Of a DNA stretch of 49,152 nt, positions 23,866 to 29,815 are shown piece by piece (position 1 is the stretch's first letter; every line of letters begins with the position of its first letter). The notes beneath the pieces are model-generated. The model ran no database searches. It was given only the letters and a program-made list of their open reading frames with translations, and was not told the origin of the DNA. Source of the DNA: Clostridiales bacterium (GTDB lineage: Bacteria; Bacillota; Clostridia; Saccharofermentanales; Saccharofermentanaceae); NCBI GenBank assembly GCA_017513085.1, contig JAFWDK010000035.1, positions 1-49,152 of the forward strand, read 5' to 3'. The position numbers and the translations under genes are program-made.

Positions 23866-24792
23866 TCACTGGTGCGGTACGTAGAACTCCTTTTCCACAT
23901 CCTCGACGGCAAGAAGATTCGTAAGTTCCTCTTCCGTGACATCCTGGAGATGGCCGATCACGACGCAATCGATGATGTGAGCCTTGTAGACGATCGCAAA
24001 TTCCAGCTTACCATACCGGATGATATCACCCGGCTTGACCTCAACGGTGGTGATCTCTTCTTTATAGATCTTCTCCGCAATCCAGCAGCTCTTCTCGTTT
24101 CCGCCGACATCTTTCATTGTTCCTAAAGAAAATGCCGTGTTCTGGCGTTTCATGATCTCCTGCGAAGTGGCATTGTTCTCCATAACGACCTTGAACTCGC
24201 GATCGCCGATGGACAGGACCGGCATCTTGTCAGGATCGATGGCATCTTCATCCACAACGATGTCGATGGTCAGATCATCATATACCGTAACAATATAGTA
24301 CTTCCTGTCTTCGAGGCAATTACCTTCCTGCAACGTCTCTTCGACTGTCATTTTAGTCGTTCCCGGCTTTACTCCCATAAAAATGTAGGTATAGGTGAAT
24401 CCTGCCCCGTTCATCTTGTCATGATCCGGATCACGGTATTTCTTGTCATACTCGATCTTAACGATTGAACTATCCTCAAAGGTGAATTCATATCTCGGTC
24501 CGCCACCATCAAAAGAAGACAACGTCCACTTTATTTCTTTCTTGCCACTAGTCTTCGGATCTGTATTTGTCATATTGCTGGTCGCTCCTGTGGTATCTTC
24601 GGTAACTCCGCTCTCTCCGGCCGTCTCAGTAGTCTCCGCACTCTCACTGCTTTCCGCAATAGTCGTCGCACTCGTACGGCTGGTCCTCGTATCCGATGCA
24701 TCCGTATCTTTCGACGTACAACCCAAAAGCCCTAAGCCGGCAGCCGCAAGCACAAGCCCCGATGCGGCCAACAACCTTTTAACACTTTTCAT
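23866..24792 (-). CDS. Lipoprotein with S/T-rich linker, Ig/chagasin-like domain and C-terminal cyclophilin-like-fold domain
   Basis: Lipobox LLGC; GAGFTYTYIFMGVKPGTT; MENNATS...MKDVGGNEK...VKPGDI..Y...AIVY. Confidence 0.6.
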   Translation of the reverse strand: MKSVKRLLAASGLVLAAAGLGLLGCTSKDTDASDTRTSRTSATTIAESSESAETTETAGESGVTEDTTGATSNMTNTDPKTSGKKEIKWTLSSFDGGGPRYEFTFEDSSIVKIEYDKKYRDPDHDKMNGAGFTYTYIFMGVKPGTTKMTVEETLQEGNCLEDRKYYIVTVYDDLTIDIVVDEDAIDPDKMPVLSIGDREFKVVMENNATSQEIMKRQNTAFSLGTMKDVGGNEKSCWIAEKIYKEEITTVEVKPGDIIRYGKLEFAIVYKAHIIDCVVIGHLQDVTEEELTNLLAVEDVEKEFYVPHQ

Positions 24793-24913
24793 TTCTACTC
24801 CCTCGCAAACCGACCGTCCCCGCGGGAACCCGGCAGATACCGCTTCCCGCGAGGCACAGATCAAATCATTCCCTCACTATTATATCGTTTGTCGAAGGCC
24901 AGGTACACTACTA

Positions 24914-26119
24914 TCACGAAGCCTTGAAATTGTAGACCGGCTTCATGATGTCGAGGATGTCCACGGAATCCGCGATCACATCTACGATGTCGCCCAGAGA
25001 CTTGTACGCCATGGGCGCTTCGTCCAAAGTCTGCGGGGTGACGGAAGTCGTGTAGATGCCTGCCATTTCAGCCTTATAGGTATCCATGTCCAGTTTTTCC
25101 CTTGCCGCAGAACGCGAAAGGATACGACCGGCACCGTGCGGCGCCGAGTAATTCCACTCCGGATTGCCACGGCCCACCGCGATCACCGAGCCATCACGCA
25201 TGTTGATCGGAATCAGGACCTTCTCACCCGCATGCGCCGCGATCGCGCCCTTTCTCAGGATCATCTCATCGGTATCGATATAATTGTGTACCGTGTGAAA
25301 AGCACTTTTCCCGGTCATTCCGGTTCTTTCCAGGAGGATCTCAGCCATTTTTTCACGGTTTCTCACCGCAAACTTCTGGCAGATCTCCACATCATGCAGA
25401 TAGTCCTCCAGGAAGGAGCCGTAAAGCCAGCACAACTCCTCAGGAACCGTCAGGACCTGTTCATCGTACTCCTTGGCCAGCGCCCGGAGAGAAGACTCGA
25501 TCTCCTTTCTACGACCCTCTTCCTTATACGTACGGATCAGCTCTTCCTTCTTCTTGAAATACTCCTCCTTGCCCTTATGCAGGTCTACGGCGAGGCCCTG
25601 GTAGAACTCCGCCACCTGCTTGCCCAGGTTACGGCTGCCGGAGTGGATCACGAGATAAAACGTACCATCCGAAGAGCGGTCGATCTCGATAAAGTGATTG
25701 CCTCCGCCAAGCGTACCGAGCGATCTCTGCAGATACCTGGTATTCTTGAGGTTACGGAAGCAGCGCAACTCGGTAAGATCGAACTTCTCGACCTTGCCCT
25801 CCCAGACATTCATGCCGGAAGGAATGAAATGCGCGGCCTCATCGATACGCGCGAAATCCAGAGATCGCGCGGAGAGCTCGACTGTGTACATGCCGCAGCC
25901 GATGTCGACGCCTACGATATTCGGGCAGACCTTGTCGCCCACCGTCATTGTAGTACCGATCGTGCAGCCTTTGCCGGAATGCACGTCCGGCATGATGCGC
26001 ACCTTCTGGCCGGAAGTTAACTCATAATCGCACATCTTGCGGATCTGCTCGATGGCTTCGTCTTCCACCACCTTCGCGTAGCAGATCGCCGTATTTAATT
26101 TTCCTTTTATTTCAAACAT
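24914..26119 (-). CDS. rtcB: RtcB-family RNA ligase
   Basis: MPDVHSGKG, VGVDIGCG, GTLGGGNHF, IHSGSR, HNY, RKGA, SAPHGAGR, DEAPMAYK. Confidence 0.96.
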   Translation of the reverse strand: MFEIKGKLNTAICYAKVVEDEAIEQIRKMCDYELTSGQKVRIMPDVHSGKGCTIGTTMTVGDKVCPNIVGVDIGCGMYTVELSARSLDFARIDEAAHFIPSGMNVWEGKVEKFDLTELRCFRNLKNTRYLQRSLGTLGGGNHFIEIDRSSDGTFYLVIHSGSRNLGKQVAEFYQGLAVDLHKGKEEYFKKKEELIRTYKEEGRRKEIESSLRALAKEYDEQVLTVPEELCWLYGSFLEDYLHDVEICQKFAVRNREKMAEILLERTGMTGKSAFHTVHNYIDTDEMILRKGAIAAHAGEKVLIPINMRDGSVIAVGRGNPEWNYSAPHGAGRILSRSAAREKLDMDTYKAEMAGIYTTSVTPQTLDEAPMAYKSLGDIVDVIADSVDILDIMKPVYNFKAS

Positions 26120-26146
26120 TTTCATTACCTCTAACATCATGCCGGA

Positions 26147-27637
26147 TCACGCTGTGATCCCATTATATCTCGGGCTGTTTAAGACCTTTAACATAAAAGA
26201 ATACGGGTCGATTTTTCCCGAAGTGACCATAGAGAAAAGCATCGGTGTAACACCGCTCAGCAGGACCACGCCCTGCTCATTGCTTCTCACCGGGACTTGC
26301 TGGTGTCTGGCGCATACATTCCAGAAGATCAGTTGCGGCAGCTTATAGCCTGCACGCTCGAATCTCTCTTTCGCGGCCTCGAAATTGGTCATCTCCGCAT
26401 TTTTCGCACAGAAGTTAAACTCCATATCCGAGATCAGGAAGATCCTCTTCGGGAGGTCTTTCTGCTTCAGGTGATACTTCACCGCGGTGTCCAGGATCAG
26501 GTCAAAGACCGCCTCGACATTCGTATCCGCCACCTCGCTTTTGGAAGTCACGTAACGCAATTTCTCGACGAAGGTTTTGCCCTTGATCTCGATCAATTGC
26601 GGTCTTCTTGAAAAAGAGATGTAGTGGTTCTTGAAGACACCCTCATTTCTCTCCGCGAAGTACAGACCCAAAGAAAGCGCGACAGCCGCCGGGTAAGCAC
26701 CCGCGCAAGTTGAATACATGGAACCGGAAGTATCGATGACCGCCAGCGAATCCTTCGCACAAGGAAACTCCGGCAACGAAGACCAGGTCGCGTTCAGTGC
26801 TTTTGCCTCGGAAGAGGAAATCGACACGAAGCTCCGCGTATTGTAATCCCAGTTCAGATACGGCAGGATCAGCTCATACGGAGATACATTCTCCGCGTTC
26901 AGGTACGCCTTGCCCTCGGAAACCGCGGACAGGTAAGCGTTGTATCTCTCGCCGTCATTTCTGAAGAAGGCCTTTCTATACTTAAAAAGCGCTCTCGACG
27001 GTTGTGTCTCGTAGTCGAACGTGTAGTCTTTCTCTCTCAGGTTGTTCTCCAGGATACGGATCGCACCTCTCAGCTTCGTCAGCGTTTTTCTGTACTGCTC
27101 CTCGGACATATCCAGTGCTTTGGCCATTTTTTTGCCTTGCGCGCGGGTCTTTTGGGAAGACGCGTTGATGGACGGCAGCCACTTGCCCAAAAGCGTGGTC
27201 GGTCTGTCTTTCTCCAGTGCCGCCAAATCAACGGTCAAGACTCTTTTTACCTCAGAGATCATGGCCGCCTCGGCCGGCGTGCCGAACAAAGACAGCAAGT
27301 CGTCATATCTGCCAAGCTCGCTGAAGAAGAAGATATTTTTCTCCAGGGACTTCGGCGACACAAACGCCAGCCAGTGCACGATCGTGCGGAAGACTCTTCT
27401 CTCGCCCAGACCGCCGCGGATATCTCTTGTGAAGAACAGGAGCTTCATGGCAGTGTCCGCATCCTCGTCGAATGCTTTTTGGAAACGAGCGAGGATATCG
27501 GCTTTTGAAGCCTGTCTCAGCGCACCGGCGCAGGAGAACATATCCAGGCAGGCGGAGTCCGTCGTCTCGTACGTTACGGCACCATTCTCTGTATACGTCA
27601 TATTTACTTTTGTCTCTCTCTTTAAGAACTCCAACAT
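26147..27637 (-). CDS. DUF2828-family protein (helical N-domain plus vWA domain; Ro60/TROVE-like architecture)
   Basis: TENGA...ACLDMF, RDIRGGLGER, GRYDDL, KWLPS, MIDAS DTSGSM, ISDMEF, FWNV; ATG after AAGGAG. Confidence 0.85.
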   Translation of the reverse strand: MLEFLKRETKVNMTYTENGAVTYETTDSACLDMFSCAGALRQASKADILARFQKAFDEDADTAMKLLFFTRDIRGGLGERRVFRTIVHWLAFVSPKSLEKNIFFFSELGRYDDLLSLFGTPAEAAMISEVKRVLTVDLAALEKDRPTTLLGKWLPSINASSQKTRAQGKKMAKALDMSEEQYRKTLTKLRGAIRILENNLREKDYTFDYETQPSRALFKYRKAFFRNDGERYNAYLSAVSEGKAYLNAENVSPYELILPYLNWDYNTRSFVSISSSEAKALNATWSSLPEFPCAKDSLAVIDTSGSMYSTCAGAYPAAVALSLGLYFAERNEGVFKNHYISFSRRPQLIEIKGKTFVEKLRYVTSKSEVADTNVEAVFDLILDTAVKYHLKQKDLPKRIFLISDMEFNFCAKNAEMTNFEAAKERFERAGYKLPQLIFWNVCARHQQVPVRSNEQGVVLLSGVTPMLFSMVTSGKIDPYSFMLKVLNSPRYNGITA

Positions 27638-27665
27638 AAGCTCCACTCCTTTATCTTTAAGTTAC

Positions 27666-27735
27666 AAGGCACTGCAAGATTCGAACTTGTATTTGATTTG
27701 GATAATCATTCACCGACAATTGCTGTAAGTGCCTT
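27666..27735 (-). ncRNA. Putative small structured RNA B (Y-RNA-like, with tRNA-type T-arm)
   Basis: AAGGCACT/AGTGCCTT perfect 8-bp terminal stem, TACAGCAA directly after the 5' strand, CAAG-TTCGAAT-CTTG arm next to the 3' strand. Confidence 0.6.
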
Positions 27736-27738
27736 TAC

Positions 27739-27799
27739 AAGACGCGGTTTTTAGAATGCTTTACCACATAAAGATCTGTCAGTTTGCTGTACGCGTCTT
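27739..27799 (-). ncRNA. Putative small structured RNA A (paralog of B)
   Basis: AAGACGCG/CGCGTCTT perfect 8-bp terminal stem followed by the same TACAGCAA. Confidence 0.55.
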
Positions 27800-27811
27800 T
27801 GTTATGTCTCC

Positions 27812-27841
27812 ATTCTACCCACCTGTGATTTTTCTTCACGG
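27812..27841 (-). promoter_or_regulatory. Candidate promoter of the ncRNA-DUF2828-rtcB operon with an imperfect palindrome at the spacer/-35
   Basis: -10 TAGAAT at 27817-27812, no good -35; CTGTGA-N7-TCACGG at 27823-27841. Confidence 0.4.
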
Positions 27842-27907
27842 AAAAAAAGTTGCGAACTGTGCTACAATGTATGCGAAGTTTTTGAAAAGCACGGAGATCT
27901 CAGGCTT

Positions 27908-28780
27908 ATGGCGGATTTACGAAAGATCGATCTACACATGCATTCCAAGGTTTCGGACGGCACCGACTCGCCGGAAGATCTGGTGGAGAAGGTTCGGGAA
28001 GCAGGTTTTTCCACATTTGCCGTGACCGATCACGACACACTCGAAAGTATCCCGATGATCCGGGCGGCAATAAAAGAAGGCGACCCGCGTTACATCTGCG
28101 GCGTGGAATTCTCCTGTAAAGACGAACAAGGCCGGTACCACATCCTCGGCTACGGCTTCGATCCCGATTCTTCGGCGATCCACGACATCGTTTCGGCCGG
28201 GCACGATTACCGCATCAAGAAGTTTCTCGCGCGTGTCGATATTCTAGAGCAAAAGCACTCGATCACTTTCCCTTCGGAGGAGATCGAGGGTCTGCTTGCT
28301 CTGGGCAACCCCGGCCGTCTGCACCTGGCCAATCTCATGATCGATCACGGCTACGTCAGCTCCCGCGGCGAAGCTTTTGACCGGTATCTGAATAATCTTC
28401 ATGTAGAAGGACTCTACTTTCCGCCGGAAGACGCGATCCGTCACATCCTTGCGGCCGGCGGCGTGCCGGTTATGGCACATCCGGTATACGGCAGCGGCGG
28501 AGAGGAAGTCTTCGGGCACGATCTGGAGCGTCGCGTGATCCGTCTGAAAGACGCAGGACTCTGTGGCCTGGAAGCGTTCTACTCGCGCTACACGCCGGAG
28601 CTTCGCGATATGGTTTTAGATCTGGCTGATAAATATGATCTGTTCGCCACCGCCGGCAGTGACTACCACGGCGCGCACAAAAAAGTCGCACTCGGCGACA
28701 TCGGCCCGTTGCCGGAAGAGGAAGCGGTGCTGACAAAATGGGAAAAATCGCTCGATGCGTTCCTTGAGAAGGTGCTCTGA
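27908..28780 (+). CDS. PHP-domain phosphoesterase (TrpH/YciV-like)
   Basis: DLHMHSKVSDG, VTDHD, GVEFS, HILGYG, AHP, GSDYHG. Extended -10 TGcTACAAT at 27860-27868. Confidence 0.92.
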   Translation: MADLRKIDLHMHSKVSDGTDSPEDLVEKVREAGFSTFAVTDHDTLESIPMIRAAIKEGDPRYICGVEFSCKDEQGRYHILGYGFDPDSSAIHDIVSAGHDYRIKKFLARVDILEQKHSITFPSEEIEGLLALGNPGRLHLANLMIDHGYVSSRGEAFDRYLNNLHVEGLYFPPEDAIRHILAAGGVPVMAHPVYGSGGEEVFGHDLERRVIRLKDAGLCGLEAFYSRYTPELRDMVLDLADKYDLFATAGSDYHGAHKKVALGDIGPLPEEEAVLTKWEKSLDAFLEKVL

Positions 28781-28798: not shown

Positions 28799-29815
28799 TT
28801 ATTCTGCCTCGCTCCGTTCCATCGCCTGCTGATCCAACGTCCCTTGGTCCAGCGCCTGCTGCTTCAACAGCCGCTCGCGCATGAGGTCCACAAAGTGTTC
28901 CGGCTCGCGCACGCGCACTAAAGGCCCGAATCCCAGGAGCCGGATGACCATCTCGGTCTCGTCATTTCTGTCATATAACAATGTTACCCGGTAGTTTTTC
29001 TCGTCTAACTTCTCCGCCCGACGCTCAAAATGCGCAAAATGCAGCATCACACGGTCCAGTGCTTTTCGCTCGTCAAGGAGATCAAAAACGACCTGATCCT
29101 GATGCGGGCGGGTCTGCTTCCGCTCCGTCATCCACGGCTCGACCTCGCAAAGCTCGCACGAATCGATGCGCGCCAGGTTGATGATGTCGCTTCGGTGCGA
29201 CGCACGGCCGAACAGCCGGAACTTGTCGTCCTTCTCGGAATACTCGAGGTGTGACGGCAGCGTCGTGATCTGCATCAAGTGCCCGTAGCGGTTTCTGACC
29301 TCCAGGCGGAGCGCTTTCTTCTCACGCAGCGCTTCCAGAACCGTCGCAAAATGCGCGCGATACGCGGGATCCTCATACGGATCGCCGTCTGCATAGCGGT
29401 CAAACACACAATAATCTTCCTTCGCAAAAAGCACTTTCTCGTCGGGATACGGGAGCGGCACGGTCGCTTCGTGTGTCTCCGCATCCGCATCGCCATCTTC
29501 GCCGGTCTCTGCCATTTCCGTTCCTTTCAGGAAAAGCAACATGCGCGGGTCCTGACTGATCGCGTTGATCCACTCTTTCTGAAGTTTGGTCAGCGGCATT
29601 GTCGGTGCGGCGTGAAGCGGCGTGGTGCCGTCTTTCCGCAGTAGCGGCCAGCGGCTTTCAGAGAGCGCCGGAAGGATCGCGAGCGCGCTCTCATCAAATG
29701 CATTTTCCGCGATGATCCTCCGCATCTCTTCGGTCGTGACAGGATGCGAAACGGCCTCGCGCAGGATCCTTGCCACCGCGTTATAGTAGGCGCTGTAAAG
29801 CTCACTGAAGATCAT
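28799..29815 (-). CDS. WYL-domain protein
   Basis: P.HLEYSEKDDKFRL...INLARI WYL-like core and a WCX-like tail (LLGFGPLVRVREP); coupled to the upstream WYL gene. Confidence 0.8.
   Translation of the reverse strand: MIFSELYSAYYNAVARILREAVSHPVTTEEMRRIIAENAFDESALAILPALSESRWPLLRKDGTTPLHAAPTMPLTKLQKEWINAISQDPRMLLFLKGTEMAETGEDGDADAETHEATVPLPYPDEKVLFAKEDYCVFDRYADGDPYEDPAYRAHFATVLEALREKKALRLEVRNRYGHLMQITTLPSHLEYSEKDDKFRLFGRASHRSDIINLARIDSCELCEVEPWMTERKQTRPHQDQVVFDLLDERKALDRVMLHFAHFERRAEKLDEKNYRVTLLYDRNDETEMVIRLLGFGPLVRVREPEHFVDLMRERLLKQQALDQGTLDQQAMERSEAE

Follow-up and report, generated by a model that had tools for sequence, protein, structure and literature searches.

Ro60 and the Y RNAs form a classic and still poorly understood RNA-protein particle. 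Here we compare it with a locus on a 49,152-nucleotide (nt) stretch of contig JAFWDK010000035.1 from a Clostridiales bacterium (assembly GCA_017513085.1; the whole stretch is referred to as the window), in which two tandem RNA elements, modules A and B, head an operon for a DUF2828 protein and the RNA ligase RtcB. According to the passages of Chen et al. (2014, PMC4201824) used here, bacterial Y RNAs carry GNCGAAN0-1G, the motif to which Ro binds, in the terminal stem close to the 5′ end; the animal form of the motif is GGUCCGA. The same passages describe YrlA-type RNAs as small RNAs encoded beside a Ro60-type gene on the same strand, often several in tandem, in which a stem formed by the two ends is thought to dock the protein and the remainder often mimics a tRNA. 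They occur in bacteria and phages, often in operons with RtcB, and the modules reported here resemble them in this general layout. The Salmonella rsr-yrlBA-rtcBA operon (Hughes et al. 2020, PMC7790460) also unites a Ro-type protein, tandem small RNAs, RtcB and an adjacent ligand-sensing regulator. Excerpts of a multi-omics study of Listeria phage cka15 (PMC12282133) report that the 2 kb upstream of CKA15_055 hold three non-coding regions of very high abundance, suggest that these may be Y RNAs, and list the CKA15_055 protein among those detected in virions. CKA15_055 is a DUF2828 homologue, and both the protein family and the Y RNA idea are the same as in this study. The excerpts define no sequence, motif or structure for the proposed Y RNAs (PMC12282133). 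Our full-text literature search found no description of ACAGCAA modules, the motif by which the elements described below are recognized (RNA-repair reviews outside that search may discuss DUF2828). The pairing of a Ro-type protein with adjacent tRNA-mimicking RNAs is a known concept, and the Ro-likeness of DUF2828 is already present in annotations. The abstract of a 2016 paper by Burroughs and Aravind reportedly names Rot/TROVE together with Y RNAs, and also a tRNA-like RNA linked to band-7.

The window locus differs from the Salmonella operon in both its protein and its RNA family. The regulator in Salmonella is the sigma-54 activator RtcR, whereas a pair of WYL/WCX proteins is found here; RtcA belongs to the Salmonella operon and is absent from this one; and the Salmonella RNAs lie between rsr and rtcB, whereas here the RNAs lead the operon. 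We conclude that modules A and B are members of a widespread, apparently unnamed small RNA family, and that they are probably Y-RNA-like cognate partners of the DUF2828/vWA protein.

Both modules lie on the minus strand (Table 1) and are separated by 3 nt (GTA). An earlier account of this DNA made without database searches (the sequence-only reading) had described them as two tandem elements with perfect 8-base-pair (bp) stems, 3 nt apart, and this is what we see at those positions. It had also stressed that the stems differ while a motif is shared, and TACAGCAA indeed abuts the 5′ stem strand in both modules. The T-arm-like hairpin noted in module B is present as well. The statement that module B is without an anticodon arm needs amending: at the anticodon-arm position the middle of the module forms the hairpin TGATT-ATCCA-AATCA (5-bp stem and 5-nt loop), so a hairpin does exist there, and it is not a canonical anticodon arm. 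A nearly identical copy of module A, including its small hairpin, occurs in locus L001, the closest relative among the bacterial loci described below. The stem of module B, AAGGCAC, belongs to the commonest stem class, which is also the commonest among gene-proximal modules.

The window alone carries little statistical weight. TACAGCAA occurs in the window at these two sites only, yet at least two matches were found in 22 of 100 shuffles. Folding of the 146-nt stretch gave z = -1.82, and 7 of 200 shuffles folded equally well. The significance of the modules comes from comparison across loci, and not from the window by itself. ARAGORN and Rfam (E up to 10, positions 27000-28500) called nothing at 27666-27799, and a promoter and terminator scan of 27400-28100 detected no sigma-70 consensus site and no terminator-like site.

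DUF2828 relatives made up 7,668 of 8,000 scored candidates. For the comparison in bacteria, we used the best 80 of 562 places matched by a 20-sequence DUF2828 alignment on one-genome-per-species contigs. The module consensus comprises a closing stem of 7-8 bp (AAGGCRC/GYGCCUU), an unpaired ACAGCAA, a variable insert and a conserved G after the 3′ strand. The logo of 188 bacterial elements reads A, AAGGCRCNN, ACAGCAA, a variable insert with an A-rich end, NNGYGCCUU and G(U). Pairs 3-6 exchange G-C for A-U and the reverse, and pair 8 occurs in all four Watson-Crick forms. Judged by eye, the logos show no K-turn and no pairing partner for ACAGCAA inside the module. The 188 elements are 44 to 189 nt long (median 84). 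Bacterial loci carry 1 to 6 modules according to the exact-motif script, with neighbours often 2-13 nt apart. Only 3 of 100 adjacent pairs have the same stem class, compared with about 14-15 expected from the class frequencies, and this avoidance fits a need to prevent mispairing within one transcript.

The closing stem covaries in the bacterial seed set and in viral modules, as the sequence-only reading would have it. The seed alignment (A3) consists of 38 short bacterial modules with the 8-pair stem taken as the structure, and is the basis of the covariance model R1. In this alignment 97% of cells are paired, both partners change in five of the eight pairs (70 cells), and the remaining three are invariant; 0 of 500 shuffles attain these values, and the pair count leans towards structure since the set was selected for a paired stem. 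Stem registers slid along the same alignment have 29-57% of cells paired. When viral modules were aligned to the bacterial model (79 matches, 76 distinct), 94.6% of cells were paired, with compensatory changes in all eight pairs (137 cells) and 0 of 500 shuffles attaining these values; this count, too, leans towards structure, as the alignment was fitted to R1. CAGCA is unchanged in 76 of 76 distinct viral modules and the G following the stem in 71 of 72. In the 3.06-Mb genome that includes the window, R1 has exactly two matches, at 27736-27802 (49.2 bits, E 4e-8) and 27663-27738 (42.4 bits). Two further genome matches to AARRYRYNNACAGCAA are without the closing stem and were rejected as chance. 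We regard the modules as a real, widespread, strand-specific and covarying RNA family.

The enrichment of motif and stem near DUF2828 homologues, on which the sequence-only reading depended, is strong and strand-specific in both bacteria and phages. We searched bacterial and viral loci with a script that demands ACAGCAA and a closing stem of at least 7 pairs. In the 61 kb of bacterial sequence located 0-800 nt upstream on the gene's strand, 157 motif sites had the stem and 9 did not. The respective numbers were 36 and 5 farther upstream on that strand (120 kb), 5 and 23 downstream (295 kb), and 7 and 18 on the opposite strand (476 kb). The 12 stemmed elements of the downstream and opposite-strand zones do not have the conserved handle (closing stem, ACAGCAA and flanking nucleotides) and look like chance matches. 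R1 (E up to 0.01) returned 182 matches across the 80 loci and the window, and 182 of 182 are upstream and on the gene's strand. With scripts and R1 combined, at least one module was found in 76 of the 80 loci; the other four (L061, L064, L078 and L079) include merely 0-208 nt of sequence upstream of the operon.

Searches by tblastn with the window's proteins detected a WYL/WCX protein in 62 of the 80 bacterial loci, nearly always upstream on the gene's strand, a second WYL-like protein in 51, and RtcB in 50, mostly downstream of DUF2828. The usual bacterial order is WYL-like, WYL, RNA array, DUF2828 and RtcB. Among 151 genomes sampled from the same class, five had R1 matches and four encoded DUF2828 above the Pfam cut-off. 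All four of the latter are among the five, with RNA and gene on one contig and within about 2 kb of each other. A tight array of 17 tRNA genes runs into the module array upstream of DUF2828 in a Mogibacterium-type genome (L020, 384-2360), giving a bacterial locus with a phage-like arrangement of tRNAs and modules.

The viral set consists of 80 kept of 483 matching stretches, with a DUF2828 protein identity of about 40%. R1 (E up to 0.1) had 155 matches in these loci, every one on the gene's (+) strand, and the motif-and-stem script identified 191 elements on the + strand and one on the - strand (74 of 80 loci). The viral loci include 213 tRNA genes (62 of 80 loci), RtcB in 3 of 80 and WYL genes in 2 of 80. 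The constant neighbours in phages are thus DUF2828 and tRNA genes. Phage modules lie among the tRNA genes, upstream or downstream of DUF2828, or tens of kb away from it. We also did the reverse test, in which viral contigs were scanned for AAGGCACNNACAGCAA, yielding at least 120 stretches, of which 80 with flanks were analysed. A genuine stem-closed module was present in 36 of these, and the other 44 were chance pattern matches. DUF2828 is encoded on the same record in 23 of the 36 genuine cases (16 within 8 kb, 7 elsewhere), versus 0 of 44 chance-match loci with DUF2828 within 8 kb.

Among 50,697 deposited phage records, tblastn detected DUF2828 in 705, with hosts that include Escherichia, Mycobacterium, Salmonella, Vibrio, Listeria, Staphylococcus, Campylobacter and Enterococcus. 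We examined nine named phage records with R1, filters off. Listeria phage LMTA-57 has two modules immediately upstream of the DUF2828 gene. Listeria phage cka15 (OR088597.1) has the same two and a third that was read directly (L302, 4423-4527); the three, at about 25,290-25,555, are downstream of their own TTGACA-17-TATCAT promoter. One module (24.7 bits) occupies the gap after the DUF2828 gene of Mycobacterium phage Enceladus. Enterococcus phage PEf771 has two (26.9 and 21.6 bits) and a weak third, and Campylobacter phage CPX has two (30.4 and 19.1 bits) between its tRNA array and the gene. The link between modules and DUF2828 is broad and, at the reach of R1, not universal; the remaining four records are considered below with the other evidence of this kind.

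Some of these phage loci have further features of note. In Enceladus (L301, 4170-7476), a gene for a band-7-like membrane protein is located three genes before the gene annotated as 'Ro-like RNA binding protein'. Band-7/SPFH proteins are linked to a tRNA-like RNA in RNA-repair systems. In Pectobacterium phage CBB (L307, 2940-11029), DUF2828 adjoins genes for an ATP-dependent RNA ligase, an HNH endonuclease, a ribosome hibernation-type protein and a tRNA nucleotidyltransferase. The excerpts of the cka15 study place the most transcribed region at 26,236-26,727, annotated as the tiny open reading frames (ORFs) CKA15_059-061 (PMC12282133). We found that L302 3071-3622 (OR088597.1 about 26,195-26,746, complement) matches the Rfam ROOL RNA over the full model, with 90.1 bits and E 2e-18 against a gathering score of 99.1. 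This region is about 700 nt upstream of the ACAGCAA modules.

The inserts (hereafter cargos) often look like tRNAs or parts of them. At gathering score, Rfam found only tRNA in 20 loci, with some of the matches inside modules. These in-module matches score 37-53 bits among those listed and mostly lack the acceptor positions (model positions 4-67 or 5-66). ARAGORN calls some of them, with assorted anticodons. Some cargos are whole cloverleaves. We counted hairpins with a stem of at least 4 bp and a 7-nt loop, using the reverse complement and shuffles as controls. Loops of the form CU-NNN-AA numbered 24 in bacterial inserts (reverse complement 2, shuffle mean 0.8) and 34 in viral inserts (3 and 0.7). 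T-loops numbered 30 in bacterial (0 and 0.2) and 21 in viral inserts (1 and 0.1). About a third of the inserts thus have one or other type of hairpin (52 of 177 in bacteria, 49 of 134 in viruses). A wider loop pattern, YU-NNN-R-N, gave 56 against 29 in the reverse-complement control and was dropped for the stricter patterns. The commonest phage loops read as the anticodons UUU and UGA (9 each), CAU (6) and GUU (4). In modules whose cargo is a complete tRNA look-alike, the handle prolongs a short acceptor-like stem and ACAGCAA takes the position of the 5′ leader. In the window, the T-arm of module B is the only such part; module A has no tRNA part.

Likeness to tRNA (RF00005) is thus of two kinds, in that many cargos score as tRNA and phage modules are interleaved with true tRNA genes. 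There are also differences. Neither window module is recognized by ARAGORN or Rfam as a cloverleaf with a 7-bp acceptor stem; the tRNA-like cargos have acceptor-like stems of 3-5 bp, assorted anticodons and no CCA end; and tRNA has no counterpart of the module handle with its ACAGCAA.

The modules are also distinct from YrlA. The YrlA model (RF02553) has no match in the window (E up to 10), none at gathering score in 20 DUF2828 loci and none at E up to 1 in five. At true Ro60 loci of the same phylum, the same model scores 27.9-39.9 bits in three of four (gathering score 69), and these sub-threshold matches sit just upstream of the Ro60 gene on the same strand. Conversely, R1 finds nothing at the four true Ro60 loci (best 14.7 bits). 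We infer that the two protein families are each accompanied, at the same relative position, by a separate RNA family. The positional rule of Y RNAs, within a few kb and on the same strand, holds for the modules relative to DUF2828, which is only distantly related to Ro60 and is not its TROVE-family orthologue. The absence of the canonical Ro-binding GGUCCGA stem, proposed in the sequence-only reading, is borne out, as the conserved parts are the AAGGCRC stem and the unpaired ACAGCAA and the modules go unmatched by the YrlA model. No family in Rfam 15 covers them, in line with the impression that they were unnamed. The broader suggestion of a Y-RNA-like class beside DUF2828 holds computationally in its gene linkage, its covariation and a distant Ro60 likeness.

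Several structural differences from YrlA are evident when the modules are set beside the descriptions in those passages of Chen et al. The YrlA motif is within the stem, whereas ACAGCAA is unpaired and lies past the 5′ strand. The partner of YrlA is a TROVE protein, whereas the neighbour of the modules belongs to Pfam DUF2828/DUF7788. In YrlA, the docking stem replaces the anticodon stem (PMC4201824); in contrast, the tRNA-like modules have the handle at the acceptor end and leave the anticodon-like arm exposed. Many module cargos, moreover, are just a single hairpin.

We evaluated the relationship between DUF2828 and Ro60 by several approaches. Pfam TROVE (PF05731) does not match the DUF2828 proteins, and among 24 members searched against Pfam, vWA_Ro60 appears weakly in 3 and VWA_2 in 21. 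In a protein language-model search (Atlas), the nearest other families are TROVE and vWA_Ro60 (0.92 for 24 of 30 matches), which serves as a lead only. For hhalign, the TROVE proteins comprised four from genomes of the same phylum and 20 from a protein search. Closely related DUF2828 sequences gave a weak match (31.5%), and a phage-inclusive DUF2828 alignment gave probabilities of 85.4% and 84.6%, with E about 6e-6 over 246-248 columns. The aligned DUF2828 residues, about 200-478, take in the final TROVE helices, the DxSGSM metal site and all of the vWA domain, so that, by hhalign, DUF2828 has a C-terminal vWA domain with a MIDAS motif following the last TROVE helices. Profiles A1 and A4 had no meaningful match to the sequences of solved structures. 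GenBank annotates the mycobacteriophage DUF2828 homologues as 'Ro-like RNA binding protein', and the excerpts of the cka15 study give Deinococcus Rsr as the best HHpred match of the cka15 homologue (PMC12282133). On this comparison of sequences, the C-terminal half of DUF2828 appears to be distantly related to Ro60, and the protein does not belong among the TROVE-family orthologues.

These features suggest how the system may work. A weak promoter, probably controlled by the WYL proteins, would give a DUF2828-rtcB transcript with modules A and B as its leader, and the modules would presumably be excised from this leader to give discrete RNAs. The conserved handle (the end stem of 7-8 bp, the unpaired ACAGCAA and the flanking 5′ A and 3′ G) would be the docking site at which DUF2828 binds, and it would bear a variable cargo that is often a look-alike of a tRNA, a T-arm or an anticodon arm. 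Through the cargo, the particle may be tied to enzymes of tRNA handling or RNA repair, RtcB for example, much as Y RNAs work with Ro60, which would give the modules a putative role in RNA repair.

Several observations limit, or weigh against, a partnership of this kind between the modules and DUF2828, beyond the lean of the two pair counts given above. RNA-library contigs over the window, from four of six sequencing runs, are few, with a depth of 2-5, and offer no useful cover or bounds of the modules. The N-terminal, ring-forming half of DUF2828 (residues 1-200) has no hhalign coverage against TROVE. The fifth genome with an R1 match (G436) has a lone module and no DUF2828. In the reverse test, 13 of the 36 records that carry a genuine module show no DUF2828; of these, 12 are rated below 90% complete, and one, of 278 kb, is rated 100% complete. 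Among the named phages, Vibrio phage ValKK3, Synechococcus phage B23 and Pectobacterium phage CBB encode DUF2828 and have no convincing module within 5 kb according to R1, and Shigella phage Tf has a 13-bit match only, but with ACAGCAA and a 7-bp stem and within a tRNA array. The RtcB-first loci and the spacing of modules from start codons, both treated in the next paragraphs, count on the same side. As for the G436 hairpin (L093, 1503-1553; AAAACAC..ACAGCAA..GTGTTTT-G, 40.5 bits), it is located between two methyltransferase-like ORFs and may be prophage-borne.

In five loci (L023, L030, L044, L053 and L072), RtcB is encoded ahead of DUF2828 and the modules lie upstream of RtcB. Because the modules precede RtcB there, the array heads the operon rather than DUF2828 itself, and the partner of the modules could be the operon as a whole. 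The same loci would fit real small RNAs that serve another partner, as substrates, guides or sensors of RtcB or tRNA processing, with DUF2828 merely co-inherited. Such an RNA could, for example, be a bait that is cut in ACAGCAA or in the anticodon-like loop and resealed, its fragments being sensed by the WYL regulators. The WYL pairs beside most bacterial loci and the records with modules and without DUF2828 speak for this too. We nevertheless consider it unlikely, given the rarity of RtcB and WYL genes in phages, where DUF2828 is constant, the difference between module and control loci in the reverse test, and the fact that the handle and DUF2828 are kept together in hosts that range from Actinobacteria to Campylobacter. 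Since the elements are tandem inverted repeats, and some inserts score as tRNA despite poor acceptor stems, they could also be repeats at the DNA level (REP- or MITE-like palindromes) or the decayed remains of tRNA genes, and do nothing as RNA. This was already disfavoured and is highly improbable: the genome has just two copies, both at the DUF2828 operon, the strand bias is strict in bacteria and phages (182 of 182, and 191 versus 1), the unpaired 7-nt motif stays constant across phyla while the stem covaries, and adjacent modules avoid the same stem class.

A role in cis is suggested by the bacterial arrangement. In the window, 28 nt separate the end of module B from the ATG of DUF2828, occupied only by the ribosome-binding site AAGGAG, and no terminator-like site intervenes; the final module is likewise followed by the start codon at a distance of 15-55 nt in 50 of 73 bacterial loci. 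Such spacing without a terminator makes a role in the mRNA leader possible, whereby DUF2828 or a WYL protein would bind the operon's 5′ leader and control translation or stability of its own mRNA in the manner of ribosomal-protein leaders, with no release of the modules. A leader of this type would be expected always in a 5′ untranslated region and with an expression platform, and here there is no terminator-like site and the phage modules are placed elsewhere: amid tRNA genes, past the gene or at a distance of tens of kb, and in cka15 behind a promoter of their own. The copy number also varies, with 1 to 6 modules at a bacterial locus by the exact-motif script and as many as 11 along a single strand of a 16-kb viral stretch. 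Cargos that resemble whole tRNAs are hard to explain as an operator. We regard control in cis without release as quite unlikely, and favour small RNAs that partner DUF2828.

If the modules do act with DUF2828, one could speculate further, with a rather low expectation of being right, that they form a modular 'display' system. In it, a constant protein-binding handle would present interchangeable mimics of tRNA parts, namely anticodon arms (CU-UUU-AA, CU-UGA-AA, CU-CAU-AA and CU-GUU-AA), T-arms and whole tRNA bodies, as decoys or sentinels for enzymes that cut anticodon loops. Phages would use modules beside their spare tRNAs to absorb or report host anticodon nucleases, and bacteria would couple the modules to RtcB and WYL sensors, so that damage is detected and resealed. 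If true, this would be a new non-coding RNA logic in the conflict between phage and host over tRNA.

The association of DUF2828 with these modules points to a second, far more phage-rich branch of the Ro60/Y-RNA theme. The family accompanies DUF2828 in gut bacteria and in many phages, whose carriers include Listeria (P100/A511-type), Enterococcus, Campylobacter, Felix-O1-type and mycobacterial phages. Because the handle is short, sharply defined and mutable and laboratory phages are among its carriers, direct tests can address whether the two are partners, how the modules are processed and what the tRNA-like cargo is for. Annotation would also gain, as the modules are now left blank or labelled as small hypothetical genes or odd tRNAs.

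Table 1. Features of the module locus and its neighbourhood in the window (aa, amino acids; nt, nucleotides).
Feature	Coordinates	Strand	Details
RNA module A	27739..27799	-	Closing stem AAGACGCG/CGCGTCTT, 8 bp; ACAGCAA; 37-nt insert with small hairpin
Module A flanks	A at 27800, G at 27738	-	
ACAGCAA, module A	27784..27790	-	Unpaired; one nt past 5′ stem strand
RNA module B	27666..27735	-	Closing stem AAGGCACT/AGTGCCTT, 8 bp; ACAGCAA; T-arm-like insert
ACAGCAA, module B	27720..27726	-	
T-arm-like hairpin CAAG-TTCGAAT-CTTG, module B	27675..27689	-	One C before 3′ stem strand
Possible -10 box TAGAAT	27812..27817	-	Putative and weak, without a clear -35; about 12 nt from module A on its upstream side
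DUF2828 + DUF7788 (vWA) protein, 496 aa	26147..27637	-	Pfam 1.3e-30 and 6.9e-44
RtcB RNA ligase	24914..26140	-	Next operon gene; Pfam PF01139, 1.6e-55
WYL/WCX-domain protein	28799..29815	-	Likely regulator; Pfam WCX 1.2e-4; PADLOC WYL 2.3e-8
Second WYL-like protein, 446 aa	29812..31152	-	Paired with the first; PADLOC WYL 1.9e-9; Pfam WYL 0.02
PHP-domain protein	27908-28780	+	Divergent, between WYL genes and RNA array
Cyclophilin-like domain protein	23866-24864	-	After rtcB; weak chagasin-type inhibitor match

When examining the genes around the modules, we noted that the PHP-domain protein has some likeness to models of 3′,5′-bisphosphate nucleotidase and RNase RNM, far below the cut-offs. Among the 80 bacterial loci, insertion of this gene is common only to the closest relative, L001. 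The cyclophilin-like gene after rtcB also has a counterpart in L001 only, and for this reason it probably lies outside the core system. The region upstream of module A (27800-27915, minus strand) is 95% identical to that of L001, whereas the proteins are about 81-89% identical. It contains TTCGCA-N16-TTCGCA, a direct repeat and possible WYL-protein operator.

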